From Camelus dromedarius (Eukaryota): a stretch of 64,000 nucleotides of DNA. The translations under genes were made by a program, and so were the position numbers. The stretch's first letter is position 1. Every line of letters starts with the position of its first letter. The notes under the pieces are model-generated. The model saw only the letters and a list, made by a program, of their open reading frames with translations, was not told the DNA's origin and did no database searches. Of the stretch, positions 1 through 56,279 are shown one piece after another. The DNA is taken from NCBI RefSeq assembly GCF_036321535.1, contig NC_087436.1:3100001-3164000 (forward strand), given 5' to 3'.

Positions 1-3000
1 GAAGGACGGCTTTCACACACAGTTAACTCTCAGAACTGAGCATGTGGAGAGACGCTCTTTCATCTAGCACAAAGGAAAATTGTTGCAGGTGATACTTTAA
101 CTCTGGTTTCTCAGTCTGTTTCCTGTTGCCGTTTTGAAGTTCCTGCAGTTTTCACTGTAAAACAGAGTTGGAGCTAGTACCTCCCCATATATATGTAGGG
201 AGTGGATTTGGCAAATGAAAAGAAACTTTGTATTCCAAACCAGCTAGTTGAAGGACGGCTTTCACACACACTAATATCTCAGAAATGAGCATGTGGAGAG
301 ACGTTCGTTCATCTAGCACAAAGTATACGGGTTGCAGGAGAAACTTTTATTCTGGTTTCTCAGTCTGTTTCCTGTTGCCGTTTTGAAGTTCCTGTAGTTT
401 TCACTGTAAAACAGAGTTGTAGCTAGTACCTCCCCATATATATGTATGGAGTGGTGTTTGCAACTGAATAGAAACTTTCTGTTCCCAACAATCTAGGTGA
501 AATACGGCTTACACACACACTTATCTCTCAGAAATGGTCATGTGGAGAGACGTTCGTTCATCTAGCACAAAGGGAACGGGTTGCAGGGGAAACTTTTACT
601 CTGGTTTCTCAGTCTGTTTCCTAGTGCCGGAGTGAAGTTCCTGCAGTTTTCACTGTAAAACCGAGTTGGAGCTAGAACCACCCCATATATATGTATGGAG
701 TGGAGTTTGCAAGTGAAAAGAAACTTTGTGTTCCCAACATGCTAGGTGAAGGACGGCTTTCACACACACTTATCTCTCAGAACTGAGCATGTGGAGAGAC
801 GTTCGTTCATCTAGCACAAAGAGAACGGGTTGCAACAGAAACTTTTACTCTGGTTTCTCAGTTTCCTAGTGCCGGTTTGAAGTTCCTGCAGTTTGCACTG
901 CAAAACCGATTTGGAGCTATAACATCCCCATATATATGTATGGAGTGGAGTTTGCAAGTGAAAAGAAATTTTGTGTTCCCAACAAGCTAGGTGAAGGACG
1001 GCTTTCACACACACTTATCACTCATAACTGAGCAAGTGGAGAGACGTTCGTTCATCTTTCACAAATGGAACGGGTTGCAATAGAATCTTTTACTCTGGTT
1101 TCTCAGTCTGTTTCCTAGTGCCGGTTTAAAATTCCTGCAGTTTTCACTGTAAAACCGAGTTGGAGCTAGTACCTAACCATATATATGTATGGAGTGGTGT
1201 TTGCAAGTGAAAAGAATCTTTGTGTTCCCCACAAGCTAGGTGAAGGACGGCTTTCACACACACTTATCTCTGAGAACTGAGCATGTGTAGAGACGTTCGT
1301 TCATCTTGCAAAAAGGGAACGGTTTGCAGGAGAAATTTTACTCTGGTTTCTCAGTCTGTTTCCTAGTACCGGTTTGTTGTTCCTGCAGTTTTCACTGTAA
1401 AACCGAGTTGGAGCTAGTACCTCCCCATATATATGTATGGAGTGGAGTTTGCAAATGAAAAGAAACTTTTTGTTCCCAAGAAGCTTTGTGAAAGACGGCT
1501 TTCACACACACTTATCTCTCAGAACTGAGCATGTGGAGAGACGTTCATTCATCTAGCACAAAGAGAACGGGTTGCAGGGGAAACTTTTACTCTGGTTTCT
1601 CAGACTATTTCCTAGTGCCGGTTTGAAGTTCCTGCAGGTTTCACTGTAAAACCGAGTTGGAGCTAGTACCTCCCCATATATATGTATGGAGTGGAGTTTG
1701 CAAATGAAAAGAAATTTGTTTTCCCAAGAAGCTATGTGAAAGACGGCCTTCACACACACTTATCTCTCAGAACTGAGCATGTGCAGAGACGTTCGTTCAT
1801 CTAGCACAAAAGAACGGGTTGCAGGAGAAACTTTTTCTCTGGTTTCTAAGTCTGTTTCCTAGTGCCGGTTTGAAGTTCCTGCAGTTTTCACTGTAAAACC
1901 GAGTTGGAGATAGTACCTCCCCATATATATGTATGGAGTGGAGTTTGCAACTGAAAAGAAACTTTGTGTTCCAAACAAGCTAGGTGAAGGACGGCTTTCA
2001 CACACAGTTAACTCTCAGAACTGAGCATGTGGAGAGACGCTCTTTCATCTAGCACAAAGGAAAATTGTTGCAGGTGATACTTTAACTCTGGTTTCTCAGT
2101 CTGTTTCCTGTTGCCGTTTTGAAGTTCCTGTAGTTTTCACTGTAAAACAGAGTTGTAGCTAGTACCTCCCCATATATATGTATGGAGTGGTGTTTGCAAC
2201 TGAATAGAAACTTTCTGTTCCCAACAATCTAGGTGAAATACGGCTTACACACACACTTATCTCTCAGAAATGGTCATGTGGAGAGACGTTCGTTCATCTA
2301 GCACAAAGGGAACGGGTTGCAGGGGAAACTTTTACTCTGGTTTCTCAGTCTGTTTCCTAGTGCCGGAGTGAAGTTCCTGCAGTTTTCACTGTAAAACCGA
2401 GTTGGAGCTAGTACCACCCCATATATATGTATGGAGTGGAGTTTGCAAGTGAAAAGAAACTTTGTGTTCCCAACATGCTAGGTGAAGGACGGCTTTCACA
2501 CACACTTATCTCTCAGAACTGAGCATGTGGAGAGACGTTCGTTCATCTAGCACAAAGAGAACGGGTTGCAACAGAAACTTTTACTCTGGTTTCTCAGTTT
2601 CCTAGTGCCGGTTTGAAGTTCCTGCAGTTTGCACTGCAAAACCGATTTGGAGCTATAACATCCCCATATATATGTATGGAGTGGAGTTTGCAAGTGAAAA
2701 GAAATTTTGTGTTCCCAACAAGCTAGGTGAAGGACGGCTTTCACACACACTTATCTCTCATAACTGAGCAAGTGGAGAGACGTTCGTTCATCTTTCACAA
2801 ATGGAACGGGTTGCAATAAAATCTTTTACTCTGGTTTCTCAGTCTGTTTCCTAGTGCCGGTTTAAAATTCCTTCAGTTTTCACTGTAAAACCGAGTTGGA
2901 GCTAGTACCTAACCATATATATGTATGGAGTGGTGTTTGCAAGTGAAAAGAATCTATGTGTTCCCCACAAGCTAGGTGAAGGACGGCTTTCACACACACT

Positions 3001-3419
3001 TATCTCTGAGAACTGAGCATGTGTAGAGACGTTCGTTCATCTAGCAAAAAGGGAACAGTTTGCAGGTGAAACTTTTACTCTGGTTTCTCAGTCTGTTTCC
3101 TAGTGCCGGTTTGTTGTTCCTGCAGTTTTCACTGTAAAACCGGCTTGGAGCTAGTACCTCCCCATATATTTGTATAGAGTGGAGTTTGCAACTGAAAAGA
3201 AACTTTGTCTTCCCAACAAGCTAGGTGAAGAACGGCTTTCACACACACTTATCTCTGAGAACTGAGCATGTGGAGAGACGTTCGTTCATCTAGCACAAAT
3301 GGAACAGTTTGCCGGAGAAACTTTTACTCTGGTTTCTCAGTCTGATTCCTAGGGCCGGTTTGAAGTTCCTGCAGTTTTCACTGTAAAACCGAGTTGGAGC
3401 TAGTACCTCCCCATATATT

Positions 3420-5410
3420 TGTATGGAGTGGAGTTTGCAACTGAAAAAAAACTTTGTATCCCAACAAGCTAGGTGAAGAACGGCTTTTAAACACACTTAT
3501 CTCTGAGAACTGAGCATGTGGAGAGACGTTCGTTCATCTAGCACAAAGGGAACAGTTTGCGGGAGAAAATTTTACTCTGGTTTCTCAGTCTGATTCCTAG
3601 TGCCGGTTTGAAGTTCCTGCAGTTTTCACTGTAAAACCGAGTTGGAGCTAGTACTTCACCATATATTTGTATGAAGTGGAGTTTGCAACTGAAAAGAAAC
3701 TTTGTGTTCCCAACAAGCTAGTTGAAGGACGGCTTTTACACACACTTATCTCTCAGAACTGAGCATGTGGAGAGACGTTCGTTCATCTAGCACAAAGGGA
3801 ACGGGTTGCAACAGAAACTTTTACTCTGGTTTCTCAGTCTGTTTCCTAGTGCCGCTTTGAAGTTCCTGCACTTTTCACTGTAAAACCGTGTTGGAGCTAG
3901 TACCTCCCCATATATACGTATGGAGTGGAGTTTGCAAGTGAAAAGAAACTTTGTGTTCCCAACAAGCTAGGTGAAGGACGGCTTTCACACACAATTATCT
4001 CTCAGAACTGAGCATGTGGAGAGACGTTCGTTCATCTAGCACAAAGGTAACGGATTGCAGGAGAAACTTTTAAACTGGTTTCTCAGTCTGTTTCCTAGTG
4101 CCGATTTGAAGTTCCTGCAGTTTTCACTGTAAAACCGAGTTGGAGCTAGTACCTCCCATATATATATTTATGGATTGGAGTTTGCAAGTGAAAAGAAACT
4201 TTGTGTTCCCAACAAGCTAGGTGAAGGACGGCTTACACACACTTATCTCTCAGACCTGAGCATGTGGAGAGACTTTCTTTCATCTAGCACAAAGGGAACG
4301 GGTGCAGGAGAAACTTTTACTCTGGTTTCTCAGTCTGTTTTCTAGTGCCGGTTTAAGTTCCTGCAGTATTCACTGTAAAACATATTTGGAGCTAGTACCT
4401 CCCCATATATATGTATGGAGTGGAGTTTGCAACTGAAAAAAAACTTTGTATCCCAACAAGCTAGGTGAAGAACGGCTTTTAAACACACTTATCTCTGAGA
4501 ACTGAGCATGTGGAGAGACGTTCGTTCATCTAGCACAAAGGGAACAGTTTGCGGGAGAAAATTTTACTCTGGTTTCTCAGTCTGATTCCTAGTGCCGGTT
4601 TGAAGTTCCTGCAGTTTTCACTGTAAAACCGAGTTGGAGCTAGTACTTCACCATATATTGTATGAAGTGGAGTTTGCAACTGAAAAGAAACTTTGTGTTC
4701 CCAACAAGCTAGTTGAAGGACGGCTTTTACACACACTTATCTCTCAGAACTGAGCATGTGGAGAGACGTTCGTTCATCTAGCACAAAGGGAACGGGTTGC
4801 AACAGAAACTTTTACTCTGGTTTCTCAGTCTGTTTCCTAGTGCCGCTTTGAAGTTCCTGCAGTTTTCACTGTAAAACCGTGTTGGAGCTAGTACCTCCCC
4901 ATATATACGTATGGAGTGGAGTTTGCAAGTGAAAAGAAACTTTGTGTTCCCAACAAGCTAGGTGAAGGACGGCTTTCACACACACTTATCTCTCAGAACT
5001 GAGCATGTGGAGAGACGTTCTTTCATCTAGCACAAAGGTAACGGATTGCAGGAGAAACTTTTAAACTGGTTTCTCAGTCTGTTTCCTAGTGCCGATTTGA
5101 AGTTCCTGCAGTTTTCACTGTAAAACCGATTTGGAGCTAGTACCTCCCATATATATATTTATGGATTGGAGTTTGCAAGTGAAAAGAAACTTTGTGTTCC
5201 CAACAAGCTAGGTGAAGGACGGCTTTCACACACACTTATCTCTCAGACCTGAGCATGTGGAGAGACTTTCTTTCATCTAGCACAAAGGGAACGGTTGCAG
5301 GAAAAACTTTTACTCTGGTTTCTCAGTCTGTTTTCTAGTGCCGGTTTAAGTTCCTGCAGTATTCACTGTAAAACATATTTGGAGCTAGTACCTCCCCATA
5401 TATATGTATG
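3420..5410 (+). repeat. Local 4-monomer tandem duplication (period ~992 bp; types H-I-J-K twice), also present in the second 38-mer copy (~12860-14850)
   Basis: The diagnostic GCGGGAGAAAATT occurs at ~3559 and ~4551. GGTAACGGATT and CAGACCTGAG monomers repeat in the same order. Confidence 0.9.
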
Positions 5411-5849
5411 GAGTGGAGTTTGCAAGTGAAAAGAAACTTTGTGTTCCCAACAAGCTAGGTGAAGGGCGGCTTTCACACACACTTATCTATGAGAACTTAG
5501 CATGTGGAGAGACGTTCGTTCTCTAGCACAAAAGGAACAGTTTGCAGGAGAAACTTTAACTCTGGTTTCTCAGTCTGTTTCCTAGTTCCGGTTGAAGTTC
5601 CTGCAGTTTTCACTGTATAACCGAGTTGGAGCTATACCTCCCCATATATATATATGGAGTGGAGTTTGCAAGTGAAAAGAAACTTTGTCTTCCCAACAAG
5701 CTATGTGAAGAACGGCTTTCACACACAATTATCTCTGAGAACTGAGAATGTGGAGAGACGTTCGTTCATCTAGCACAAAGGGAAGAGTTTGCTGGAAAAA
5801 CTTTTACTCTTGTTTCTCAGTCTGTTTCCTAGTGCCGGTTGAAGTTCCT

Positions 5850-8800
5850 GCAGGTTTCACTGTAAAACCGAGTTGGAGCTAGTACCTCCCCATATATTTG
5901 TATGGAGTGGAGTTTGCAACTGAAAAGAAACTTTGTGTTCCCAACATGCTAGGTGAAGGACGGCTTTTAAACACACTTTTCTCTCAGAACTGAGCATGTG
6001 GAGAGACGTTCGTTCATCTAGAACAAAGGGAAAGGTTTGCAACAGAAACTATTACTCTGGTTTCTCAGTCTATTTCCAAGTGCCGGTTTGAAGTTCCTGC
6101 AGGTTTCACTATAAAACCGATTTGGAGCTAGTACCTCCCCATATATATGTATGGAGTGGAGATTGCAACTGAAAAGAAACTTTGTGTTCCCAACAAGCTA
6201 GTTGAAGGACGGCTTTCACACACAGTTTAATCTCAGAACTGAGCATGTGGAGAGACGTTCGTTCATCTAGCACAAAGGAAACGTGTTGCAGGTTAAACTT
6301 TTACTCTGGTTTCTCAGTCTGTTTCCTAGTACCGGTTTGAAGTTCCTTTAGTTTTCACTGTAAAACCGATTTGGAGCTAGTACCTCCCCATATATAAGTA
6401 TGGAGTGGAGTTTGCAACTGAAAAGAAACTTTGAGTTTCCAACAAGGTAGGTGAAGGACGGCTTTCACACACAGTTAACTCTCAGAACTGAGCATGTGGA
6501 GAGACGTTCGTTCATCTAGCACGAAGGAAACGGGTTGCAGGGGAAAGTTTTACTCTGGATTCTCAGTCTGTTTCCTAGTGCCCGTTTGAAGTTCCTGTAG
6601 TTTTCACTGTAAACCGTGTTGGAGATAGTACCTCCCATATATATATGTATGGAATGTAGTTTGAAAGTGAAAAGAAACTTTGTGTTCCCAAGAAGCTAGG
6701 TGAAGGACGGCTTTCACACACACTTATCTCTCAGAACTGAGCATGTGGAAAGACGTTCCCTCATCTAGCACGAAGAGAACGGGTTGCAGGAGAAACTTTT
6801 CTCTGGTTTCTCAGTATATTTCCTAGTGCCGGTTTGAAGTTCCTGCATGTTTCACTGTAAAACCGAGTTGGAGCTAGTACTTCCCCATATATATTTATGG
6901 AGTGGAGTTTGCAACTGAAAATAAACTTTGTGTTCCCAACAAGCTACGTTAAGAACGGCTTTCACACACACATATATCTCAGAACTGAGCATATGGAGAG
7001 ACTTTCGTTCATCTAGCACATAGGGAACTGGTTGCAGGAGAAACTTTTACTCTGGTTTCTCAGTATGTTTCCTGTTGCCGCTTTGAAGTTCCTGCAGTTT
7101 TCACTGTAAAACCGAGTTGGAGCTAGTACATCCCCATAAATATGTATGGAGTGGAGTTTGCAACTGTAAAGAAACTTTGTGTTCCCAACAAGCTAGGTGA
7201 AGGACGGCTTTCACACACTATTATCTCTCAGAACTGAGCATGTGGAGAGACGTTCGTTCATCTAGCACAAAGGGAACGGGTTGCAGTAGAAACTTTTACC
7301 CTGGTTTCTCAGTCTGTTTCCTAGTGCCTGTTTGAAGTTCCTGAAGGTTTCACTGTAAAACCGAGTTGGAGTTAGTACCTCCCCATATATATGTATGGAG
7401 TGGAGATTGCAATTGAAGAGAAAATTTGTGTTCCCAAAAAGCTATGTGAAGGACGGCTTTCACACACAGTTAACTCTCAGATATGAGCATGTGGAGAGAC
7501 GTTCGTTCATCTTGCAAAAATGGAACGGTTTGCAGGAGAAATTTTACTCTGGTTTCTCAGTCTGTTTCCTAGTACCGGTTTGAAGTTCCTGCAGGTTTCA
7601 CTGTAAAACCGAGTTGGAGCTAGTACCTCCCCATATATTTGTATGGAGTGGAGTTTGCAACTGAAAAGAAACTTTGTGTTCCCAACATGCTAGGTGAAGT
7701 ACGGCTTTTAAACACACTTTTCTCTAAGAACTGAGCATGTGGAGAGACGTTCGTTCATCTAGAACAAAGGGAAAGGTTTGCAACAGAAACTATTACTCTG
7801 GTTTCTCAGTCTATTTCCAAGTGCCGGTTTGAAGTTCCTGCAGGTTTCACTATAAAACCGATTTGGAGCTAGTACCTCCCCATATATATGTATGGAATGG
7901 AGATTGCAACTGAAAAGAAACTTTGTGTTCCCAACAAGCTAGTTGAAGGACGGCTTTCACACACAGTTTAATCTCAGAACTGAGCATGTGGAGAGACGTT
8001 CGTTCATCTAGCACAAAGGAAACGTGTTGCAGGTTAAACTTTTACTCTGGTTTCTCAGTCTGTTTCCTAGTACCGGTTTGAAGTTCCTTTAGTTTTCACT
8101 GTAAAACCGATTTGGAGCTAGTACCTCCCCATATATAAGTATGGAGTGGAGTTTGCAACTGAAAAGAAACTTTGAGTTTCCAACAAGGTAGGTGAAGGAC
8201 GGCTTTCACACACAGTTAACTCTCAGAACTGAGCATGTGGAGAGACGTTCGTTCATCTAGCACAAAGGAAACGGGTTGCAGGGGAAAGTTTTACTCTGGA
8301 TTCTCAGTCTGTTTCCTAGTGCCCGTTTGAAGTTCCTGTAGTTTTCACTGTAAACCGTGTTGGAGATAGTACCTCCCATATATATATGTATGGAATGGAG
8401 TTTGAAAGTGAAAAGAAACTTTGTGTTCCCAAGAAGCTAGGTGAAGGACGGCTTTCACACACACTTATCTCTCAGAACTGAGCATGTGGAAAGACGTTCC
8501 CTCATCTAGCACGAAGAGAACGGGTTGCAGGAGAAACTTTTCTCTGGTTTCTCAGTATATTTCCTAGTGCCGGTTTGAAGTTCCTGCATGTTTCACTGTA
8601 AAACCGAGTTGGAGCTAGTACTTCCCCATATATATTTATGGAGTGGAGTTTGCAACTGAAAATAAACTTTGTGTTCCCAACAAGCTAGGTTAAGAACGGC
8701 TTTCACACACACATATATCTCAGAACTGAGCATGTGGAGAGACTTTCGTTCATCTAGCACAAAGGGAACTGGTTGCAGGAGAAACTTTTACTCTGGTTTC

Positions 8801-9340
8801 TCAGTATGTTTCCTGTTGCCGCTTTGAAGTTCCTGCAGTTTTCACTGTAAAACCGAGTTGGAGCTAGTACATCCCCATAAATATGTATGGAGTGGAGTTT
8901 GCAACTGTAAAGAAACTTTGTGTTCCCAACAAGCTAGGTGAAGGACGGCTTTCACACACAATTATCTCTCAGAACTGAGCATGTGGAGAGACGTTCGTTC
9001 ATCTAGCACAAAGGGAACGGGTTGCAGGAGAAACTTTTACCCTGGTTTCTCAGTCTGTTTCCTAGTGCCGGTTTGAAGTTCCTGAAGGTTTCACTGTAAA
9101 ACCGAGTTGGAGCTAGTACCTCCCCATATATATGTATGGAGTGGAGATTGCAATTGAAGAGAAAATTTGTGTTCCCAAAAAGCTATGTGAAGGACGGCTT
9201 TCACACACAGTTAACTCTCAGATATGAGCATGTGGAGAGACGTTCGTTCGTCTTGCAAAAATGGAACGGTTTGCAGGAGAAATTTTACTCTGGTTTCTCA
9301 GTCTGTTTCCTAGTACCGGTTTGAAGTTCCTGCAGGTTTC
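5850..9340 (+). repeat. Local 7-monomer tandem duplication (period 1,741 bp; types N-O-P-Q-R-S-T twice), also at ~15290-18780
   Basis: ORF pairs 7395/9136, 15298/17039 and 16836/18577 are all offset by 1741. Diagnostic motifs recur in order (GAAACTATTAC, GTTTAATCTC, GCCCGTTT, GTTCCCTCATC, TTAAGAACGG, TTTTACCCTGG, GATATGAG). Confidence 0.92.
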
Positions 9341-12300
9341 ACTGTAAACCCGAGTTGGAGCTAGTACCTCACCATATATATGTATGGAGTGGAGTTTGCA
9401 ACTGAAAAGAAACTTTGTGTTCCCAACAAGCTAGGTGAAGGACGGCTTTCACACACAATTATCTCTCAGAACTGAGCATGTGGAGAGACGTTCGTTCATC
9501 TAGCACTAAGGAAACTGTTTGCAGGAGAAACTTTTACTCTGGGTTCTCATTCTGTTTCCTAGTGCCAGTTTGAAGTTCCTGCAGTTTTCACTGTAAAACC
9601 GAGTTGGAGCTAGTACCTCCCCATATATATGTATGGAGTGGAGTTTGCAAATGAAGAGAAACTTTGTGTTCCCAACAAGCTATGTGAAGGACGGCTTTCA
9701 CACACAGTTAACTCTCAGAAGTGAGCATGTGGAGAGACGTTCGTTCATCTAGCACAAAGGAAACGGTTTGCAGGAGAAACTTTTACTCTGGTTTCTCATT
9801 CTATTTCCTAGTGCCAGTTTGAAGTTCCTGCAGTTTTCACTGTAAAAACGAATTGGAGCTAGTACCTCCCCATATATAAGTATGGAGTGTAGTTTGCAAA
9901 TGAAAAGAAACTTTGTGTTCCCAACAAGCAATGTGAAGGACGGCTTTCACACACAGTTAACTCTCAGATCTGAGCATGTGGAGACACGTTCGTTCATCTA
10001 GCACAAAGGAAACGTTTTGCAGGGGAAACTTTTACTCTGGTTTCTCAGTCTGTTTCCTAGTACCGGTTTGAAGTTCCTTTAGTTTTCACTGTAAAACCGA
10101 GTTGGAGCTAGTACCTCCCCATATATATGTATGGAGTGGAGTTTGCAACAGAAAAGAAGCTTTGTGTTCCAAACAAGCTAGGTGAAGAACGGCTTTCACA
10201 CACACTTATCTCTCAGAACTGAGCATGTGGAGAGACGTTCGTTCATCTTGCACAAAAGGAACGGTTTGCAGGAGAAATTTTACTCTGGTTTCTCAGTCTT
10301 TTTCCTAGTACCGGATTGTTGTTCCTGCAGTTTTCACTGTAAAACCGAGTTGGAGCTATTACCTCCCCATATATATGTATGGAGTGGAGTTTGCAAATGA
10401 AAAGAAACTTTGTGTTCCCAAGAAGCTATGTGAAAGACGGCTTTCACACACACTTATCTCTCAGAACTGAGCATGTGGAGAGACGTTCATTCATTCTGCA
10501 CAAAGAGAAAGTTTTGCAGGAGAAACTTTTACTCTGTTTTCTCAGTCTATTTCCAAGTGCCGGTTTGAAGTTCCTGCAGGTTTCACTGTAAAACCGATTT
10601 GGAGCTAGATCCTCCCCATATATATGTATGGAGTGGAGTTTGCAACTGAAAAGAAACTTTGTGTTCCCAACAAGCTAGTTGAAGGACGGCTTTCACACAC
10701 AGTTATCTCTCAGAACTGAGCATGTGGAGAGACTTTCGTTCATCTAGCACAAAGGAAACGTGTTGCAGGGGAAACTTTTACTCAGGTTTCTCAGTCTGTT
10801 TCCTAGTACCGGTTTGAAGTTCCTTTAGTTTTCACTGTAAAACCGAGTTGGAGCTAGTACTTCACCATATATTTGTATGAAGTGGAGTTTGCAACTGAAA
10901 AGAAACTTTGTGTTCCCAACAAGCTAGTTGAAGGACGGCTTTTACACACACTTATCTCTCAGAACTGAGCATGTGGAGAGACGTTCGTTTATCTAGCACA
11001 AAGGGAACGGGTTGCAACAGAAACTTTTACTCTGGTTTCTCAGTCTGTTTCCTAGTGCCGCTTTGAAGTTCCTGCAGTTTTCACTGTAAAACCGTGTTGG
11101 AGCTAGTACCTCCCCATATATACGTATGGAGTGGAGTTTGCAAGTGAAAAGAAACTTTGTGTTCCCAACAAGCTAGGTGAACGACGGCTTTCACACACAC
11201 TTATCTCTCAGAACTGAGCATGTGGAGAGACGTTCGTTCATCTAGCACAAAGGTAACGGATTGCAGGAGAAACTTTAAACTGGTTTCTCAGTCTGTTTCC
11301 TAGTGCCGATTTGAAGTTCCTGCAGTTTTCACTGTAAAACCGAGTTGGAGCTAGTACCTCCCATATATATATTTATGGATTGGAGTTTGCAAGTGAAAAG
11401 AAACTTTGTGTTCCCAACAAGCTAGGTGAAGGACGGCTTTCACACACACTTATCTCTCAGACCTGAGCATGTGGAGAGACTTTCTTTCATCTAGCACAAA
11501 GGGAACGGGTGCAGGAGAAACTTTTACTCTGGTTTCTCAGTCTGTTTTCTAGTGCCGGTTTAAGTTCCTGCAGTTTTCACTGTAAAACATATTTGGAGCT
11601 AGTACCTCCCCATATATATGTATGGAGTGGAGTTTGCAAGTGAAAAGAAACTTTGTGTTCCCAACAAGCTAGGTGAAGGGAGGCTTTCACACACACTTAT
11701 CTATGAGAACTTAGCATGTGGAGAGACGTTCGTTCTCTAGCACAAAAGGAACAGTTTGCAGGAGAAACTTTTACTCTGGTTTCTCAGTCTGTTTCCTAGT
11801 TCCGGTTGAAGTTCCTGCAGTTTTCACTGTATAACCGAGTTGGAGCTATACCTCCCCATATATATATATGGAGTGGAGTTTGCAAGTGAAAAGAAACTTT
11901 GTCTTCCCAACAAGCTATGTGAAGAACGGCTTTCACACACACTTATCTCTGAGAACTGAGAATGTGGAGAGACTTTCGTTCATCTAGCACAAAGGGAAGA
12001 GTTTGCTGGAAAAACTTTTACTCTTGTTTCTCAGTCTGTTTCCTAGTGCCGGTTGAAGTTCCTGCAGTTTTCACTGTAAAACCGAGTTGGAGCTAGTACC
12101 TCCCCATATATTTGTATGGAGTGGAGTTTGCAACTGAAAAGAAACTTTGTGTTCCCAACAAGCTAGGTGAAGGACGGCTTTTAAACACACTTTTCTCTCA
12201 GAACTGAGCATGTGGAGAGACGTTCGTTCATCTAGAACAAAGGGAAACGTTTGCAACAGAAACTATTACTCTGGTTTCTCTGTCTATTTCCAAGTGCCGG

Positions 12301-15300
12301 TTTGAAGTTCCTGCAGGTTTCACTATAAAACAGATTTGGAGCTAGTACCTCCCCATATATATGTATGGAGTGGAGATTGCAACTGAAAAGAAACTTTGTG
12401 TTCCCAACAAGCTAGTTGAAGGACGGCTTTCACACACAGTTTAATCTCAGAACTGAGCATGTGGAGAGACGTTCGTTCATCTAGCACAAAGGAAACGTGT
12501 TGCAGGAGAAACTTTTACTCTGGTTTCTCAGTCTGTTTCCTAGTACCGGTTTGAAGTTCCTTTAGTTTTCACTGTAAAACCGATTTGGAGCTAGTACCTC
12601 CCCATATATTTGTATAGAGTGGAGTTTGCAACTGAAAAGAAACTTTGTGTTCCCAAGAAGCTAGGTGAAGAACGGCTTTCACACACACTTATCTCTGAGA
12701 ACTGAGCATGTGGAGAGACGTTCGTTCATCTAGCACAAATGGAACAGTTTGCCGGAGAAACTTTTACTCTGGTTTCTCAGTCTGATTCCTAGGGCCGGTT
12801 TGAAGTTCCTGCAGTTTTCACTGTAAAACCGAGTTGGAGCTAGTACCTCCCCATATATTTGTATGGAGTGGAGTTTGCAACTGAAAAAAAACTTTGTATC
12901 CCAACAAGCTAGGTGAAGAACGGCTTTTAAACACACTTATCTCTGAGAACTGAGCATGTGGAGAGACGTTCGTTCATCTAGCACAAAGGGAACAGTTTGC
13001 GGGAGAAAATTTTACTCTGGTTTCTCAGTCTGATTCCTAGTGCCGGTTTGAAGTTCCTGCAGTTTTCACTGTAAAACCGAGTTGGAGCTAGTACTTCACC
13101 ATATATTTGTATGAAGTGGAGTTTGCAACTGAAAAGAAACTTTGTGATCCCAACAAGCTAGTTGAAGGACGGCTTTTACACACACTTATCTCTCAGAACT
13201 GAGCATGTGGAGAGACGTTCGTTCATCTAGCACAAAGGGAACGGGTTGCAACAGAAACTTTTACTCTGGTTTCTCAGTCTGTTTCCTAGTGCCGCTTTGA
13301 ATTTCCTGCACTTTTCACTGTAAAACCGTGTTGGAGCTAGTACCTCCCCATATATACGTATGGAGTGGAGTTTGCAAGTGAAAAGAAACTTTGTGTTCCC
13401 AACAAGCTAGGTGAAGGACGGCTTTCACACACACTTATCTCTCACAACTGAGCATGTGGAGAGACGTTCGTTCATCTAGCACAAAGGTAACGGATTGCAG
13501 GAGAAACTTTTAAACTGGTTTCTCAGTCTGTTTCCTAGTGCCGATTTGAAGTTCCTGCAGTTTTCACTGTAAAACCGAGTTGGAGCTAGTACCTCCCATA
13601 TATATATTTATGGATTGGAGTTTGCAAGTGAAAAGAAACTTTGTGTTCCCAACAAGCTAGGTGAAGGACGGCTTACACACACTTATCTCTCAGACCTGAG
13701 CATGTGGAGAGACTTTCTTTCATCTAGCACAAAGGGAACGGGTGCAGGAGAAACTTTTACTCTGGTTTCTCAGTCTGTTTTCTAGTGCCGGTTTAAGTTC
13801 CTGCAGTATTCACTGTAAAACATATTTGGAGCTAGTACCTCCCCATATATATGTATGGAGTGGAGTTTGCAACTGAAAAAAAACTTTGTATCCCAACAAG
13901 CTAGGTGAAGAACGGCTTTTAAACACACTTATCTCTGAGAACTGAGCATGTGGAGAGACGTTCGTTCATCTAGCACAAAGGGAACAGTTTGCGGGAGAAA
14001 ATTTTACTCTGGTTTCTCAGTCTGATTCCAAGTGCCGGTTTGAAGTTCCTGCAGTTTTCACTGTAAAACCGAGTTGGAGCTTGTACTTCACCATATATTT
14101 GTATGAAGTGGAGTTTGCAACTGAAAAGAAACTTTGTGTTCCCAACAAGCTAGTTGAAGGACGGCTTTTACACACACTTATCTCTCAGAACTGAGCATGT
14201 GGAGAGACGTTCGTTCATCTAGCACAAAGGGAACGGGTTGCAACAGAAACTTTTACTCTGGTTTCTCAGTCTGTTTCCTAGTGCCGCTTTGAAGTTCCTG
14301 CAGTTTTCACTGTAAAACCGTGTTGGAGCTAGTACCTCCCCATATATACGTATGGAGTGGAGTTTGCAAGTGAAAAGAAACTTTGTGTTCCCAACAAGCT
14401 AGGTGAAGGACGGCTTTCACACACACTTATCTCTCAGAACTGAGCATGTGGAGAGACGTTCGTTCATCTAGCACAAAGGTAACGGATTGCAGGAGAAACT
14501 TTTAAACTGGTTTCTCAGTCTGTTTCCTAGTGCCGATTTGAAGTTCCTGCAGTTTTCACTGTAAAACCGAGTTGGAGCTAGTACCTCCCATATATATATT
14601 TATGGATTGGAGTTTGCAAGTGAAAAGAAACTTTGTGTTCCCAACAAGCTATGTGAAGGACGGCTTTCACACACACTTATCTCTCAGACCTGAGCATGTG
14701 GAGAGACTTTCTTTCATCTAGCACAAAGGGAACGGTTGCAGGAGAAACTTTTACTCTGGTTTCTCAGTCTGTTTTCTAGTGCCGGTTTAAGTTCCTGCAG
14801 TATTCACTGTAAAACATATTTGGAGCTAGTACCTCCCCATATATATGTATGGAGTGGAGTTTGCAAGTGAAAAGAAACTTTGTGTTCCCAACAAGCTAGG
14901 TGAAGGACGGCTTTCACACACACTTATCTATGAGAACTTAGCATGTGGAGAGACGTTCGTTCTCTAGCACAAAAGGAACAGTTTGCAGGAGAAACTTTAA
15001 CTCTGGTTTCTCAGTCTGTTTCCTAGTTCCGGTTGAAGTTCCTGCAGTTTTCACTGTATAACCGAGTTGGAGCTATACCTCCCCATATATATATATGGAG
15101 TGGAGTTTGCAAGTGAAAAGAAACTTTGTCTTCCCAACAAGCTATGTGAAGAACGGCTTTCACACACAATTATCTCTGAGAACTGAGAATGTGGAGAGAC
15201 GTTCGTTCATCTAGCACAAAGGGAAGAGTTTGCTGGAAAAACTTTTACTCTTGTTTCTCAGTCTGTTTCCTAGTGCCGGTTGAAGTTCCTGCAGTTTTCA

Positions 15301-18300
15301 CTGTAAAACCGAGTTGGAGCTAGTACCTCCCCATATATTTGTATGGAGTGGAGTTTGCAACTGAAAAGAAACTTTGTGTTCCCAACATGCTAGGTGAAGG
15401 ACGGCTTTTAAACACACTTTTCTCTCAGAACTGAGCATTTGGAGAGACGTTCGTTCATCTAGAACAAAGGGAAAGGTTTGCAACAGAAACTATTACTCTG
15501 GTTTCTCAGTCTATTTCCAAGTGCCGGTTTGAAGTTCCTGCAGGTTTCACTATAAAACCGATTTGGAGCTAGTACCTCCCCATATATATGTATGGAGTGG
15601 AGATTGCAACTGAAAAGAAACTTTGTGTTCCCAACAAGCTAGTTGAAGGACGGCTTTCACACACAGTTTAATCTCAGAACTGAGCATGTGGAGAGACGTT
15701 CGTTCATCTAGCACAAAGGAAACGTGTTGCAGGGGAAACTTTTACTCTGGTTTCTCAGTCTGTTTCCTAGTACCGGTTTGAAGTTCCTTTAGTTTTCACT
15801 GTAAAACCGATTTGGAGCTAGTACCTCCCCATATATAAGTATGGAGTGGAGTTTGCAACTGAAAAGAAACTTTGAGTTTCCAACAAGGTAGGTGAAGGAC
15901 GGCTTTCACACACAGTTAACTCTCAGAACTGAGCATGTGGAGAGACGTTCGTTCATCTAGCACAAAGGAAACGGGTTGCAGGGGAAAGTTTTACTCTGGA
16001 TTCTCAGTCTGTTTCCTAGTGCCCGTTTGAAGTTCCTGTAATTTTCACTGTAAACCGTGTTGGAGATAGTACCTCCCATATATATATGTATGGAATGGAG
16101 TTTGAAAGTGAAAAGAAACTTTGTGTTCCCAAGAAGCTAGGTGAAGGACGGCTTTCACACACACTTATCTCTCAGAACTGAGCATGTGGAAAGACGTTCC
16201 CTCATCTAGCACGAAGAGAACGGGTTGCAGGAGAAACTTTTCTCTGGTTTCTCAGTATATTTCCTAGTGCCGGTTTGAAGTTCCTGCATGTTTCACTGTA
16301 AAACCGAGTTGGAGCTAGTACTTCCCCATATATATTTATGGAGTGGAGTTTGCAACTGAAAATAAACATTGTGTTCCCAACAAGCTAGGTTAAGAACGGC
16401 TTTCACACACACATATATCTCAGAACTGAGCATGTGGAGAGACTTTCGTTCATCTAGCACAAAGGGAACTGGTTGCAGGAGAAACTTTTACTCTGGTTTC
16501 TCAGTATGTTTCCTGTTGCCGCTTTGAAGTTCCTGCAGTTTTCACTGTAAAACCGAGTTGGAGCTAGTACATCCCCATAAATATGTATGGAGTGGAGTTT
16601 GCAACTGTAAAGAAACTTTGTGTTCCCAACAAGCTAGGTGAAGGACGGCTTTCACACACAATTATCTCTCAGAACTGAGCATGTGGAGAGACGTTCGTTC
16701 ATCTAGCACAAAGGGAACGGGTTGCAGGAGAAACTTTTACCCTGGTTTCTCAGTCTGTTTCCTAGTGCCGGTTTGAAGTTCCTGAAGGTTTCACTGTAAA
16801 ACCGAGTTGGAGTTAGTACCTCCCCATATATATGTATGGAGTGGAGATTGCAATTGAAGAGAAAATTTGTGTTCCCAAAAAGCTATGTGAAGGACGGCTT
16901 TCACACACAGTTAACTCTCAGATATGAGCATGTGGAGAGACGTTCGTTCATCTTGCAAAAATGGAACGGTTTGCAGGAGAAATTTTACTCTGGTTTCTCA
17001 GTCTGTTTCCTAGTACCGGTTTGAAGTTCCTGCAGGTTTCACTGTAAAACCGAGTTGGAGCTAGTACCTCCCCATATATTTGTATGGAGTGGAGTTTGCA
17101 ACTGAAAAGAAACTTTGTGTTCCCAACATGCTAGGTGAAGGTCGGCTTTTAAACACACTTTTCTCTCAGAACTGAGCATGTGGAGAGACGTTCGTTCATC
17201 TAGAACAAAGGGAAAGGTTTGCAACAGAAACTATTACTCTGGTTTCTCAGTCTATTTCCAAGTGCCGGTTTGAAGTTCCTGCAGGTTTCACTATAAAACC
17301 GATTTGGAGCTAGTACCTCCCCATATATATGTATGGAGTGGAGATGGCAACTGAAAAGAAACTTTGTGTTCCCAACAAGCTAGTTGAAGGACGGCTTTCA
17401 CACACAGTTTAATCTCAGAACTGAGCATGTGGAGAGACGTTCGTTCATCTAGCACAAAGGAAACGTGTTGCAGGTTAAACTTTTACTCTGGTTTCTCAGT
17501 CTGTTTCCTAGTACCGGTTTGAAGTTCCTTTAGTTTTCACTGTAAAACCGATTTGGAGCTAGTACCTCCCCATATATAAGTATGGAGTGGAGTTTGCAAC
17601 TGAAAAGAAACTTTGAGTTTCCAACAAGGTAGGTGAAGGACGGCTTTCACACACAGTTAACTCTCAGAACTGAGCATGTGGAGAGACGTTCGTTCATCTA
17701 GCACAAAGGAAACGGGTTGCAGGGGAAAGTTTTACTCTGGATTCTCAGTCTGTTTCCTAGTGCCCGTTTGAAGTTCCTGTAGTTTTCACTGTAAACCGTG
17801 TTGGAGATAGTACCTCCCATATATATATGTATGGAATGGAGTTTGAAAGTGAAAAGAAACTTTGTGTTCCCAAGAAGCTAGGTGAAGGACGGCTTTCACA
17901 CACACTTATCTCTCAGAACTGAGCATGTGGAAAGACGTTCCCTCATCTAGCACGAAGAGAACGGGTTGCAGGAGAAACTTTTCTCTGGTTTCTCAGTATA
18001 TTTCCTAGTGCCGGTTTGAAGTTCCTGCATGTTTCACTGTAAAACCGAGTTGGAGCTAGTACTTCCCCATATATATTTATGGAGTGGAGTTTGCAACTGA
18101 AAATAAACTTTGTGTTCCCAACAAGCTAGGTTAAGAACGGCTTTCACACACACATATATCTCAGAACTGAGCATGTGGAGAGACTTTCGTTCATCTAGCA
18201 CAAAGGGAACTGGTTGCAGGAGAAACTATTACTCTGGTTTCTCAGTATGTTTCCTGTTGCCGCTTTGAAGTTCCTGCAGTTTTCACTGTAAAACCGAGTT

Positions 18301-21300
18301 GGAGCTAGTACATCCCCATAAATATGTATGGAGTGGAGTTTGCAACTGTAAAGAAACTTTGTGTTCCCAACAAGCTAGGTGAAGGACGGCTTTCACACAC
18401 AATTATCTCTCAGAACTGAGCATGTGGAGAGACGTTCGTTCATCTAGCACAAAGGGAACGGGTTGCAGGAGAAACTTTTACCCTGGTTTCTCAGTCTGTT
18501 TCCTAGTGCCGGTTTGAAGTTCCTGAAGGTTTCACTGTAAAACCGAGTTGGAGCTAGTACCTCCCCATATATATGTATGGAGTGGAGATTGCAATTGAAG
18601 AGAAAATTTGTGTTCCCAAAAAGCTATGTGAAGGACGGCTTTCACACACAGTTAACTCTCAGATATGAGCATGTGGAGAGACGTTCGTTCATCTTGCAAA
18701 AATGGAACGGTTTGCAGGAGAAATTTTACTCTGGTTTCTCAGTCTGTTTCCTAGTACCGGTTTGAAGTTCCTGCAGGTTTCACTGTAAACCCGAGTTGGA
18801 GCTAGTACCTCACAATATATATGTATGGAGTGGAGTTTGCAACTGAAAAGAAACTTTGTGTTCCCAACAAGCTAGGTGAAGGACGGCTTTCACACACAAT
18901 TATCTCTCAGAACTGAGCATGTGGAGAGACGTTCGTTCATCTAGCACTAAGGAAACTGTTTCCAGGAGAAACTTTTACTCTGGGTTCTCATTCTGTTTCC
19001 TAGTGCCAGTTTGAAGTTCCTGCAGTTTTCACTGTAAAACCGAGTTGGAGCTAGTACCTCCCCATATATATGTATGGAGTGGAGTTTGCAATTGAAGAGA
19101 AACTTTGTGTTCCCAACAAGCTATGTGAAGGACGGCTTTCACACACAGTTAACTCTCAGAAGTGAGCATGTGGAGAGACGTTCGTTCATCTAGCACAAAG
19201 GAAACGGTTTGCAGGAGAAACTTTTACTCTGGTTTCTCATTCTATTTCCTAGTGCCAGTTTGAAGTTCCTGCAGTTTTCACTGTAAAAACGAATTGGAGC
19301 TAGTACCTCCCCATATATAAGTATGGAGTGGAGTTTGCAAATGAAAAGAAACTTTGTGTTCCCAACAAGCAATGTGAAGGACGGCTTTCACACACAGTTA
19401 ACTCTCAGATCTGAGCATGTGGAGACACGTTCGTTCATCTAGCACAAAGGAAACGTTTTGCAGGGGAAACTTTTACTCTGGTTTCTCAGTCTGTTTCCTA
19501 GTACCGGTTTGAAGTTCCTTTAGTTTTCACTGTAAAACCGAGTTGGAGCTAGTACCTCCCCATATATATGTATGGAGTGGAGTTTGCAACAGAAAAGAAG
19601 CTTTGTGTTCCAAACAAGCTAGGTGAAGAACGGCTTTCACACACACTTATCTCTCAGAACTGAGCATGTGGAGAGACGTTCGTTCATCTTGCACAAAAGG
19701 AACGGTTTGCAGGAGAAATTTTACTCTGGTTTCTCAGTCTTTTTCCTAGTACCGGATTGTTGTTCCTGCAGTTTTCACTGTAAAACCGAGTTGGAGCTAT
19801 TACCTCCCCATATATATGTATGGAGTGGAGTTTGCAAATGAAAAGAAACTTTGTGTTCCCAAGAAGCTATGTGAAATACGGCTTTCACACACACTTATCT
19901 CTCAGAACTGAGCATGTGGAGAGACGTTCATTCATTCTGCACAAAGAGAAAGTTTTGCAGGAGAAACTTTTACTCTGGTTTCTCAGTCTATTTCCAAGTG
20001 CCGGTTTGAAGTTCCTGCAGGTTTCACTGTAAAACCGATTTGGAGCTAGATCCTCCCCATATATATGTATGGAGTGGAGTTTGCAACTGAAAAGAAACTT
20101 TGTGTTCCCAACAAGCTAGTTGAAGGATGGCTTTCACACACAGTTATCTCTCAGAAATGAGCATGTGGAGAGACTTTCGTTCATCTAGCACAAAGGAAAC
20201 GTGTTGCAGGGGAAACTTTTACTCAGGTTTCTCAGTCTGTTTCCTAGTACCGGTTTGAAGTTCCTTTAGTTTTCACTGTAAAATCGAGTTGGAGCTAGTA
20301 CTTCACCATATATTTGTATGAAGTGGAGTTTGCAACTGAAAAGAAACTTTGTGTTCCCAACAAGTTAGTTGAAGGACGGCTTTTACACACACTTATCTCT
20401 CAGAACTGAGCATGTGGAGAGACGTTCGTTTATCTAGCACAAAGGGAACGGGTTGCAACAGAAACTTTTACTCTGGTTTCTCAGTCTGTTTCCTAGTGCC
20501 GCTTTGAAGTTCCTGCAGTTTTCACTGTAAAACCGTGTTGGAGCTAGTACCTCCCCATATATACGTATGGAGTGGAGTTTGCAAGTGAAAAGAAACTTTG
20601 TGTTCCCAACAAGCTAGGTGAAGGACGGCTTTCACACACACTTATCTCTCAGAACTGAGCATGTGGAGAGACGTTCGTTCATCTAGCACAAAGGTAACGG
20701 ATTGCAGGAGAAACTTTAAACTGGTTTCTCAGTCTGTTTCCTAGTGCCGATTTGAAGTTCCTGCAGTTTTCACTGTAAAACCGAGTTGGAGCTAGTACCT
20801 CCCATATATATATTTATGGATTGGAGTTTGCAAGTGAAAAGAAACTTTGTGTTCCCAACAAGCTAGGTGAAGTACGGCTTTCACACACACTTATCTCTCA
20901 GACCTGAGCATGTGGAGAGACTTTCTTTCATCTAGCACAAAGGGAACGGGTGCAGGAGAAACTTTTACTCTGGTTTCTCAGTCTGTTTTCTAGTGCCGGT
21001 TTAAGTTCCTGCAGTTTTCACTGTAAAACATATTTGGAGCTAGTACCTCCCCATATATATGTATGGAGTGGAGTTTGCAAGTGAAAAGAAACTTTGTGTT
21101 CCCAACAAGCTAGGTGAAGGGCGGCTTTCACACACACTTATCTATGAGAACTTAGCATGTGGAGAGACGTTCGTTCTCTAGCACAAAAGGAACAGTTTGC
21201 AGGAGAAACTTTTACTCTGGTTTCTCAGTCTGTTTCCTAGTTCCGGTTGAAGTTCCTGCAGTTTTCACTGTATAACCGAGTTGGAGCTATACCTCCCCAT

Positions 21301-24300
21301 ATATATATATGGAGTGGAGTTTGCAAGTGAAAAGAAACTTTGTCTTCCCAACAAGCTATGTGAAGAACGGCTTTCACACACACTTATCTCTGAGAACTGA
21401 GAATGTGGAGAGACTTTCGTTCATCTAGCACAAAGGGAAGAGTTTGCTGGAAAAACTTTTACTCTTGTTTCTCAATCTGTTTCCTAGTGCCGGTTGAAGT
21501 TCCTGCAGTTTTCACTGTAAAACCGAGTTGGAGCTAGTACCTCCCCATATATTTGTATGGAGTGGAGTTTGCAACTGAAAAGAAACTTTGTGTTCCCAAC
21601 AAGCTAGGTGAAGGACGGCTTTTAAACACACTTTTCTCTCAGAACTGAGCATGTGGAGAGACGTTCGTTCATCTAGAACAAAGGGAAACGTTTGCAACAG
21701 AAACTATTACTCTGGTTTCTCAGTCTATTTCCAAGTGCCGGTTTGAAGTTCCTGCAAGTTTCACTATAAAACAGATTTGGAGCTAGTACCTCCCCATATA
21801 TATGTATGGAGTGGAGATTGCAACTGAAAAGAAACTTTGTGTTCCCAACAAGCTAGTTGAAGGACGGCTTTCACACACAGTTTAAACTCAGAACTGAGCA
21901 TGTGGAGAGACGTTCGTTCATCTAGCACAAAGGAAACGTGTTGCAGGAGAAACTTTTACTCTGGTTTCTCAGTCTGTTTCCTAGTACCGGTTTGAAGTTC
22001 CTTTAGTTTTCACTGTAAAACCGATTTGGAGCTAGTACCTCCCCATATATAAGTATGGAGTGGAGATTGCAACTGAAAAGAAACTTTGTGTTCCCAACAA
22101 GCTAGTTGAAGGACGGCTTTCACACACACTTATCTCTCAGAACTGAGCATGTGGAAAGACGTTCCCTCATCTAGCACAAAGAGAACGGGTTGCAGGAGAA
22201 ACTTTTCTCTGGTTTCTCAGTCTATTTCCTAGTGCCGGTTTGAAGTTCCTGCATGTTTCACTGTAAAACCGAGTTGGAGCTAGTACTTCCCCATATATAT
22301 TTATAGAGTGGAGTTTGCAACTGAAAATAAACTTTGTGTTCCCAACAAGCTAGGTTAAGAACGGCTTTCACACACACATATATCTCAGAACTGAGCTTGT
22401 GGAGAGACTTTCGTTCATCTAGAACAAAGGGAACTGGTTGCAGGAGAAACTTTTACTCTGGTTTCTCAGTATGTTTCCTGTTGCCGCTTTGAAGTTCCTG
22501 CAGTTTTCACTGTAAAACCGAGTTGGAGCTAGTACCTCCCCATAAATATGTATGGAGTGGAGTTTGCAACTGTAAAGAAACTTTGTGTTCCCAACAAGCT
22601 AGGTGAAGGACGGCTTTCACACACAATTATCTCTCAGAACTGAGCATGTGGAGAGACGTTCGTTCATCTAGCACAAAGGGAACGGGTTGCAGGAGAAACT
22701 TTTACCCTGGTTTCTCAGTCTGTTTCCTAGTGCCGGTTTGAAGTTCCTGAAGGTTTCACTGTAAAACCGAGTTGGAGCTAGTACCTCCCCATATATATGT
22801 ATGGAGTGGAGATTGCAATTGAAGAGAAAATTTGTGTTCCCAAAAAGCTATGTGAAGGACGGCTTTCACACACAGTTAACTCTCAGATTTGAGCATGTGG
22901 AGAGACGTTCGTTCATCTAGCACAAAGGAAACGTGTTGCAGGGGAAACTATTATTCTGGTTTCTCAGTCTGTTTCCTAGTACCGGTTTGAAGTTCCTTTA
23001 GTTTTCACTGTAAAACCGAGTTGGTGCTAGTACCACCCCATATATATGTATGGAGTGGAGTTTGCAACTGAAAAGAAGCTTTGTGTTCCAAACAAGCTAG
23101 GTGAAGGACGGCTTTCACACACACTTATCTCTCAGAACTGAGCATGTGGAGAGACGTTCGTTCATCTTGCAAAAATGGAACAGTTTGCAGGAGAAATTTT
23201 ACTCTGGTTTCTCAGTCTGTTTCCTAGTACCGGTTTGAAGTTCCTGCAGGTTTCACTGTAAAACCGAGTTGGAGCTAGTTCCTCACCATATATATGTATG
23301 GAGTGGAGTTTGCAACTGAAAAGAACCTTTGTGTTCCCAACAAGCTAGGTGAAGGACGGCTTTCACACACAATTATCTCTCAGAACTGAGCATGTGGAGA
23401 GACGTTCGTTCATCTAGCACTAAAGAAACTGTTTGCAGGAGAAACTTTTACTCTGGGTTCTCATTCTGTTTCCTAGTGCCAGTTTGAAGTTCCTGCAGTT
23501 TTCACTGTAAAACCGAGTTGGAGCTAGTACCTCCCCATATATATGTATGGAGTGGAGTTTGCAATTGAAGAGAAACTTTGTGTTCCCAACAAGCTATGTG
23601 AAGGACGGCTTTCACACACAGTTAACTCTCAGAACTGAGCATGTGGAGAGACGTTCGTTCATCTAGCACAAAGGAAACGGTTTGCAGGAGAAACTTTTAC
23701 TCTGGTTTCTCATTCTATTTCCTAGTGCCAGTTTGAAGTTCCTGCAGTTTTCACTGTAAAAAAGAATTGGAGCAAGTACCTCCCCATATATAAGTATGGA
23801 GTGGAGTTTGCAAATGAAAAGAAACTTTGTGTTCCCAACAAGCAATGTGAAGGACGGCTTTCACACACAGTTAACTCTCAGAACTGAGCATGTGGAGACA
23901 CGTTCGTTCATCTAGCACAAAGGAAACATTTTGCAGGGGAAACATTTACTCTGGTTTCTCAGTCTGTTTCCTAGTACCGGTTTGAAGTTCCTTTAGTTTT
24001 CACTGTAAAACCGAGTTGGAGCTAGTACCTCCCCATATATATGTATGGAGTGGAGTTTGCAACAGAAAAGAAGCTTTGTGTTCCAAACAAGCTAGGTGAA
24101 GAACGGCTTTCACACACACTTATCTCTCAGAACTGAGCATGTGGAGAGACGTTCGTTCATCTTGCAGAAAAGGAACGGTTGGCAGGAGAAATTTTACTCT
24201 GGTTTCTCAGTCTTTTTCCTAGTACCGGATTGTTGTTCCTGCAGTTTTCACTGTAAAACCGAGTTGGAGCTATTACCTCCCCATATATATGTATGGAGTG

Positions 24301-25590
24301 GAGTTTGCAAATGAAAAGAAACTTTGTGTTCCCAAGAAGCTATGTGAAAGACGGCTTTCACACACACTTATCTCTCAGAACTGAGCATGTGGAGAGACGT
24401 TCATTCATTCTGCACAAAGAGAAAGGTTTGCAGGAGAAACTTTTACTCTGGTTTCTCAGTCTATTTCCAAGTGCCGGTTTGAAGTTCCTGCAGGTTTCAC
24501 TGTAAAACCGATTTGGAGCTAGATCCTCCCCATATATATGTATGGAGTGGAGTTTGCAACTGAAAAGAAACTTTGTGTTCCCAACAAGCTAGTTGAAGGA
24601 CGGCTTTCACACACAGTTATCTCTCAGAACTGAGCATGTGGAGAGACTTTCGTTCATCTAGCACAAAGGAAACGTGTTGCAGGGGTAACTTTTACTCAGG
24701 TTTCTCAGTCTGTTTCCTAGTACCGGTTTGAAGTTCCTTTAGTTTTCACTGTAAAACCGAGTTGGAGCTAGTACCTCCCCATATATATGTATGGAGTGGA
24801 GTTTGCAACTGAAAAGAAGCTTTGTGTTCCCAACAAGCTTGGTGAAGTACGGCTTTCACACACACTTATCTCTCAGAACTGAGCATGTGGAGAGACGTTC
24901 GTTCATCTAGAACAAAGGGAACGGGTTGCAGGAGAAACTTTTATTCTGATTTCTCATTCTGTTTCCTAGTTCCGGTTTTAAGTTCCTGCAGTTTTCATTG
25001 TAAAACCGATTTGGAGCTAGAACCTACCCATATATAAGTATGGAGTGGAGTTTGCAACTGAAAAGAAACTTTGAGTTTCCAACAAGCTAGATGAAGGACG
25101 GCATTCACACACATTTAACTCTCAGAACTGAGCATGTGGGGAGACGTTCGTTCATCTAGCACAAAGGAAACGCGTTGCAGGGGAAAGTTTTACTCTGGAT
25201 TCTCAGTCTGTTTCCTAGTGCCCGTTTGAAGTTCCTGTAGTTTTCACTGTAAAACCGAGTTGGAGATAGTACCTCCCATATATATATGTATGGAGTTGAG
25301 TTTGAAAGTGAAAAGAAACTTTGTGTTCCCAAGAAGCTAGGTGAAGGACGGCTTTCACACACAATTATCTCTCAGAACTGAGCATGTGGAGAGACGTTCC
25401 CTCATCTAGCACAAAGAGAACGGGTTGCAGGAGAAACTTTTCTCTGGTTTCTCAGTCTATTTCCTAGTGCCGGTTTGAAGTTCCTGCATGTTTCACTGTA
25501 AAACCGAGTTGGAGCTAGTACATCCCCATAAATATGTATGGAGTGGAGTTTGCAACTGTAAAGAAACTTTGTGTTCCCAACAAGCTAGGT

Positions 25591-55668: not shown

Positions 55669-56279
55669 GACGGCTTTCACACACAGTTAACTCTCAGAAC
55701 TGAGCATGTGGAGAGACGTTCGTTCATCTAGCACAAAGGAAACGGTTTGCAGGAGAAACTTTTACTCTGGTTTCTCATTCTATTTCCTAGTGCCAGTTTG
55801 AAGTTCCTGCAGTTTTCACTGTAAAAAAGAATTGGAGCTAGTACCTCCCCATATATAAGTATGGAGTGGAGTTTGCAAATGAAAAGAAACTTTGTGTTCC
55901 CAACAAGCAATGTGAAGGACGGCTTTCACACACAGTTAACTCTCAGAACTGAGCATGTGGAGACACGTTCGTTCATCTAGCACAAAGGAAACGTTTTGCA
56001 GGGGAAACTTTTACTCTGGTTTCTCAGTCTGTTTCCTAGTACCGGTATGAAGTTCCTTTAGTTTTCACTGTAAAACCGAGTTGGAGCTAGTACCTCCCCA
56101 TATATATGTATGGAGTGGAGTTTGCAACAGAAAAGAAGCTTTGTGTTCCAAACAAGCTAGGTGAAGAACGGCTTTCACACACACTTATCTCTCAGAACTG
56201 AGCATGTGGAGAGACGTTCGTTCATCTTGCAGAAAAGGAACGGTTTGCAGGAGAAATTTTACTCTGGTTTCTCAGTCTG

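Follow-up and report, generated by a model that had tools for sequence, protein, structure and literature searches.

A split CENP-B box core in a camelid 249-bp satellite array is probably a chance by-product of one monomer type

Results

The window, by which we mean the whole stretch of 64,000 nucleotides that was analyzed, consists entirely of a 249-bp satellite repeated head to tail without interruption (1..64000, + strand), in an array that amounts to 257.5 copies and has a flat GC content of approximately 42%. From this array, 257 whole monomers of 244–250 bp were cut, with a mean identity of 94.4% to the window consensus and a mean divergence of 9.2% from one another. There were 207 distinct monomer sequences, and a cut of 3.5% resulted in 59 types, which radiated from the consensus by 6–23 changes. 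That the monomer might itself be a dimer or tetramer of an internal sub-repeat was considered and rejected (autocorrelation, p 0.15; half versus half, p 0.54), and an Rfam scan of 7000–12000 gave a lone match with an E value of 0.78, which was below threshold. On a larger scale, a recent tandem block duplication with a period of 38 monomers (about 9.4 kb) was found at 3260..22140 on the + strand, the copies starting at 3260 and 12700 and the end being approximate, in which 37 consecutive monomers showed a mean divergence of 0.5%. A 16-monomer block at a lag of 21 (42770–52000) and irregular units of 17–21 monomers were also present. Block repeats were detected in the window at lags of 38 and 17–21, and there was no single clean higher-order period in it.

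In the public runs X1, X7, and X2, which represent two organisms (A and B), one monomer collected 380,106, 199,264, and 287,860 contigs, respectively, numbers that are not copy numbers and that fit a major satellite. A 248-nt repeat with 45% GC has been reported in Lama glama, where it makes up 2.9% of the genome (Melters et al, 2013, PMC4053949). This llama repeat is colinear with the window satellite over the whole monomer, differing from the consensus by about 13 substitutions and a gap of one base (approximately 94% identity, aligned by eye), and the window satellite appears by this alignment to be its homolog. The satellite family is already catalogued through the llama entry, which lists no higher-order repeat, whereas the window has block duplications. 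The tandem repeat of highest abundance was taken as candidate centromere DNA in that survey, so that centromeric status was assumed from abundance, and it is likewise from its abundance that the window satellite would be a candidate for a centromeric location. No camelid CENP-A data were found in the literature searched, and the alpaca satellites described in the available part of another study are kilobase-size and non-centromeric (PMC13751797).

The differences of the monomers from the consensus comprised 96 transition and 214 transversion column-alleles, counts that saturate per column, and were led by G>T, T>A, and A>T, with no transition bias. The six CpG sites of the monomer showed little change to TG, and the public runs exhibited a mix of changes similar to that of the window. 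The absence of such a bias is unusual in mammalian DNA. Variants at 8236 (T>A) and 8264 (A>C) accounted for 20–27% of the summed run depth and were nearly or wholly missing in the window, which points to other satellite subfamilies elsewhere in the genome.

The monomer at 8227..8475 (+ strand), which is of the P type (type T3) and has 14 differences from the consensus, contains in their order, in two parts, the 15 core letters of the canonical CENP-B box known from the alpha satellite of great apes and the minor satellite of mouse. The 5' half, TTCGTT, lies at 8248..8253 (consensus columns 22–27), the 13-nt spacer at 8254..8266 (columns 28–40), and the 3' half, GGAAACGGG, at 8267..8275 (columns 41–49), all on the + strand, as is the A at 8269 (column 43) that matches the essential central A of the box. 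The original prediction had reported these strings, with further copies near 15967, 40077, and 50267, and both the strings and the coordinates proved correct, as did its statement that TTCGTT is present in most monomers (214 occurrences on the + strand). The perfect split 15-mer was found in 11 of the 257 monomers, starting at 6507, 8248, 15948, 17689, 36086, 40058, 41051, 45026, 46769, 50248, and 54474, and the consensus matches 14 of the 15 letters. Because ten of these copies were within 1.2% of each other and the remaining one was a mosaic, the 11 amount to approximately one event, spread by block duplication; the 38-monomer duplication explains two pairs of them. The common one-mismatch form that had also been described, GGGAACGGG, was indeed present, 42 times on the + strand, but its mismatch sits on the essential A. 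When the 17-mer was considered, its outer positions were mismatched in all 11 copies, position 1 being G and position 17 being T in ten and G in one. Unlike the canonical box, the match is split by 13 nt, lacks the essential A in the consensus, is mismatched at position 1, and is not conserved across the array.

The essential pattern of the box was defined as TTCG-N4-A-N2-CGGG, in accordance with two studies (PMC5889037, PMC11804003). As predicted, there was no intact pattern on either strand of the window, even with one mismatch allowed (0 one-mismatch boxes observed versus 3.64 expected from shuffles, both strands), and the best unsplit match had two mismatches, at essential bases. All nine essential bases, spacing aside, were present in 13/257 monomers and were absent from the consensus, which has G for the central A. 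Column 43 was A in 76, G in 170, and T in 11 of the 257 monomers and was G in 42 of the 59 types, and G represented 91.4%, 92.6%, and 91.1% of the summed contig depth at 8269 in X1, X7, and X2, respectively, these values being depths and not copy numbers. The central A has been described as important for binding, and box positions 1 and 17 as having little effect on it, in a preprint (bioRxiv 10.64898/2026.05.25.727640). When deletions of 1–30 nt were tried singly, only that of 13 nt yielded the essential pattern, and it did so in 13/257 monomers; since the essential A is replaced by G in the consensus, no single deletion can turn the consensus into a box. Furthermore, columns 41–49 ranked first in variability among 249 windows (0.194 versus 0.057 for the whole monomer, with types that are not independent), indicating that many variants have been sampled exactly there, and the essential CGGG columns varied in 15–39% of the types. 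With no 9-nt window of the monomer more variable than its 3' half, the box is not conserved above the monomer background within the array. The window satellite is without a CENP-B site. The earlier expectation that the split form should not bind CENP-B as written is backed by the TTCG–CGGG spacing of 20 nt, and CENP-B would not be expected to bind this satellite, judging from its sequence.

The split match was compared with four nulls, in which both strands were searched, the split point being free and the gap being ≤13 or ≤50 nt. In shuffled single monomers, the perfect 15-mer was found in 0/4000 and the essential nine bases were found in 96/4000 (gap ≤13) and 219/4000 (gap ≤50). Scrambled motifs, which were run against the 207 distinct monomers, gave for the two gaps, respectively, the perfect 15-mer in 1/1500 and 6/1500, the 14/15 consensus match in 6/1500 and 21/1500, the 17-mer with ≤2 mismatches in 96/800 and 257/800, and the essential nine in 292/800 and 501/800. 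In column-shuffled arrays (n = 1223), which preserve the dinucleotides and the real variation, the 15-mer was found in 2/1223 and 5/1223 and the 14/15 consensus match in 0/1223 and 9/1223, the 17-mer in 156/1223 and 396/1223 (consensus, 155/1223 and 359/1223), and the essential nine in 302/1223 and 651/1223 (consensus, 696/1223 and 1082/1223). The concern that split matches of equal quality might be common in shuffled sequences was hence justified for the 17-mer and the essential nine but not for the 15-mer, for which they were rare. The match exceeds chance only under the 15-mer definition, by virtue of six non-essential middle letters and with the mismatched ends left out. Given the small effect of positions 1 and 17 on binding, the 15-mer can fairly be taken as the target, and its nominal p of 0.002–0.004 stands as such, with the gap allowed post hoc, and is tempered by the finding having been picked from a large scan by virtue of its match. 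A 14/15 consensus match would be expected in about one family per 70–250, which a scan as large as this one could come across. The human box and the horse box, the sole laurasiatherian one considered, differ at five non-essential positions, as counted here from the sequences in PMC11804003, so that a laurasiatherian box need not equal the human and mouse boxes in its middle, and degenerate boxes have been reported to turn up randomly in the arms of human chromosomes (bioRxiv 10.64898/2026.05.25.727640).

The spacer was present in every monomer, with a type-level variability of 0.035 compared with 0.057 for the whole monomer. It is not copied from the adjoining sequence, being identical to the flanking bases at only 2/13 and 1/13 positions, which argues that it is no slippage copy, and no microhomology or duplication was found at its ends. 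None of the 257 monomers was without it, the longest gap in any monomer being 4 nt, and columns 22–52 measured 31 nt in 231 monomers, 30 nt in 25, and 29 nt in one. The original prediction had held that a genuine box would be called into question if no homologous satellite lacked the spacer, and none lacking it was found among the 257 monomers, in the llama entry, or in the rows listed for the three runs. In those rows, no 13-nt deletion at ≥1% was listed, in an indel table that is insensitive (known single-base deletions were missing from it and some differences were uncounted), and of the joints (15 of 140) and loose ends (18 of 994) that were listed, none fell at 8253–8267. The llama repeat has the spacer with 12 of its 13 letters (PMC4053949, by eye). 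As camels and South American camelids split 11–25 million years ago (PMC13751797), a camel origin of the window would put the age of the spacer at no less than 11–25 million years. A gapped-motif scan of metagenomes (spacer of 0–20) gave two hits, L001 and L002 (1001–1031 in each), which matched the 23-base gapped motif with an 8-nt gap; they were the same high-GC sequence, were unlike the satellite beyond 15 query bases, and were rejected as chance.

The ancestral state at column 43 was considered from the monomer types. The possibility that GGAAACGGG is a recent derived state of the P type, which had been raised beforehand, was borne out in part: it is a minority state, found in 2/59 types, and is probably derived, although the llama repeat also permits an alignment with the A state. 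The A at column 43 travels with other minority alleles, C113T being present in 12/15 A types compared with 1/44 others, which suggests a derived sub-lineage, and within this sub-lineage CGGG was kept by types T3 and T52 only. On a tree of the 59 types (midpoint root, no outgroup, bootstrap unsettled), the A state needed four changes, and a single origin is possible. The 3' half of the llama repeat is unlike that of the window in being one base shorter, without the C of CGGG, and by eye a single step separates it from the P type, compared with two steps from the window consensus. A second route to the llama form is provided by loss of a G together with C46A; because both kinds of change occur in the window, the llama is compatible with both the A and the G state. 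The direction at column 43 would be G to A.

An imperfect inverted repeat of approximately 100 bp is centered on every monomer junction. At the split match, its left (mirror) arm lies in the preceding monomer at 8176..8199, where GTTTCC faces GGAAAC, and in near-consensus monomers the same quasi-palindrome spans 8922..9018, with ungapped arms of 24 nt (8922–8945 and 8995–9018) that are 71% complementary. Between consensus columns 199–230 and columns 14–46 of the next monomer, 23/32 aligned pairs were complementary. In the mirror arm, the counterparts of the two halves are likewise 13 nt apart, and the G at column 43 is paired with a C of this arm; should the arm represent an old inverted duplication, the spacer would be as old as the arm and G would be ancestral. 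Support for the inverted repeat is moderate: the arm alignment was equalled by 74, 32, and 86 of 700 shuffles when the arms were scored once, an earlier score having given 5/300. The consensus folded with a z of −3.0 to −3.7 in four rotations, and its best 106-nt window was beaten by 4/150 shuffles, whereas real monomers folded weakly (mean z −1.2, with 4/26 sampled monomers below −2). Paired columns were no more conserved than others (variability of 0.064 versus 0.056 elsewhere), the compensatory pair types numbered 4 compared with a shuffle mean of 3.98, and the result for broken pairs, 7/1000, rests on non-independent copies. The stem looks like a decaying trace and not like a maintained structure. 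The first 8 bases of the spacer are complementary to the mirror arm at 7/8 positions and its length is suitable, so that the spacer may have been templated from the mirror arm, but its last five bases match at 0/5, which argues against such templating. In 12/12 monomers with T at column 202, the next monomer has A at column 43, restoring the outer-stem pair (8176–8181 and 8267–8272). This pairing is not evidence of selection, since it probably goes back to one ancestral junction and about 30% of the monomers carry that A.

Discussion

Among the three readings offered in the original prediction, a relic box, a precursor, and a coincidence, the last is the best supported. We consider it very probable that the split box is a chance by-product of one monomer type in a box-free camelid satellite of 248–249 bp. 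The consensus would merely happen to hold TTCGTT and, 13 bases on, GGGAACGGG; a G-to-A change at column 43 would then have occurred in one monomer sub-lineage, most of which would subsequently have altered CGGG, with one type retaining it. This type would have been copied approximately ten times in the window via block duplications, and it would read as a perfect box core once 13 bases are removed post hoc, the spacer being an ordinary part of the monomer. The array has been maintained and reshaped by block duplication, presumably through unequal exchange. If centromeric, the satellite would act as box-free satellites do elsewhere, for instance horse 37cen and Old World monkey alpha satellite (PMC11804003, PMC5889037).

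It is unlikely, in our estimation, that an ancestral camelid box was split by a 13-nt insertion before the camel-llama divergence, after which the split form spread, with the P type as its oldest form. The rarity of the 15-mer match under all nulls speaks for such an event, as do the Mus spretus and gorilla entries, whose intact boxes share the 15 core letters and are identical to the match in the middle bases (PMC4053949), whereas the match at the essential bases is at chance level. The llama repeat can be aligned with the A state, but the essential A is the minority state, and the mirror arm, which is marginally significant, shares the 13-nt spacing and is complementary to G at column 43. 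A relic could persist in a family that changes as slowly as this one (about 14 differences between the llama repeat and the window consensus, by eye); however, the spacer-less form from which it would have arisen is absent from the window, from the llama entry, and from the rows listed for the three runs. Loss of the box from major satellites has been described in equids, although boxes there decay by point changes (PMC11804003). More doubtful still is the fuller form of this scenario, in which a true ancestral box was split by the 13-nt insertion, possibly templated by the mirror arm, and the split form swept the family before the camel-llama split and turned it from a CENP-B-bound satellite into a box-free satellite of the dyad type, with the P type as the least changed trace.

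It may also be supposed that the match arose by chance and that a functional box already exists at some place in the genome through the loss of 13 nt from a P-type monomer. One such deletion gives the essential pattern in a small set of monomers, as no other length of 1–30 nt does, and rearranged monomers (joints) occur in the runs. The event would require exactly 13 bases to be lost from a type that makes up about 4% of monomers, at spacer ends that have neither microhomology nor duplication, and no such joint or loose end was among the 15 of 140 and 18 of 994 listed, so we regard it as very improbable. Least credible of all is that CENP-B or another protein binds both halves with the spacer looped out and the quasi-palindrome assisting, because, although the consensus folds better than shuffles, the predicted stem would have the upstream arm paired with the two halves and the greater part of the spacer and would not bring the halves together, real monomers fold weakly, paired columns are not extra conserved, compensatory types equal the shuffle mean, and the essential CGGG columns vary widely among the types.

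Understood as a box-free satellite with a chance match, the window satellite has counterparts in other mammals. Like equid 37cen, it is a major satellite without the box, and the equid CENPB-sat provides a precedent for a box that resides in another repeat or is decaying (PMC11804003). The equid box is unlike the window match in that it is contiguous and its binding has been demonstrated by ChIP-seq, and no insertion-split box is described in the available part of that study. The satellite also resembles the dyad-rich, box-free centromeric satellites (Kasinathan & Henikoff, 2018, PMC5889037) in lacking the box and in having a consensus that folds above shuffles, whereas its signal is one long imperfect inverted repeat that is weak in real monomers; a term search of the accessible text of that paper gave no match for the llama. 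No report of a camelid satellite with a CENP-B box, whether intact or split, was found in the literature searched, which leaves out most subscription journals, the older papers on camelid satellites among them.

The case shows how the definition of a motif can shift p from approximately 0.002 to approximately 0.25–0.5. If the relic were true, it would document, in a rare and dated case, how a mammalian centromeric repeat lost CENP-B binding through a single insertion instead of point decay, and the native and 13-nt shorter forms would provide a natural pair for asking why CENP-B has been conserved when its box has been gained and lost. As they stand, the results are modest: they tie the window to the known llama repeat, and they reveal in the array block duplications that are unlisted for the llama.
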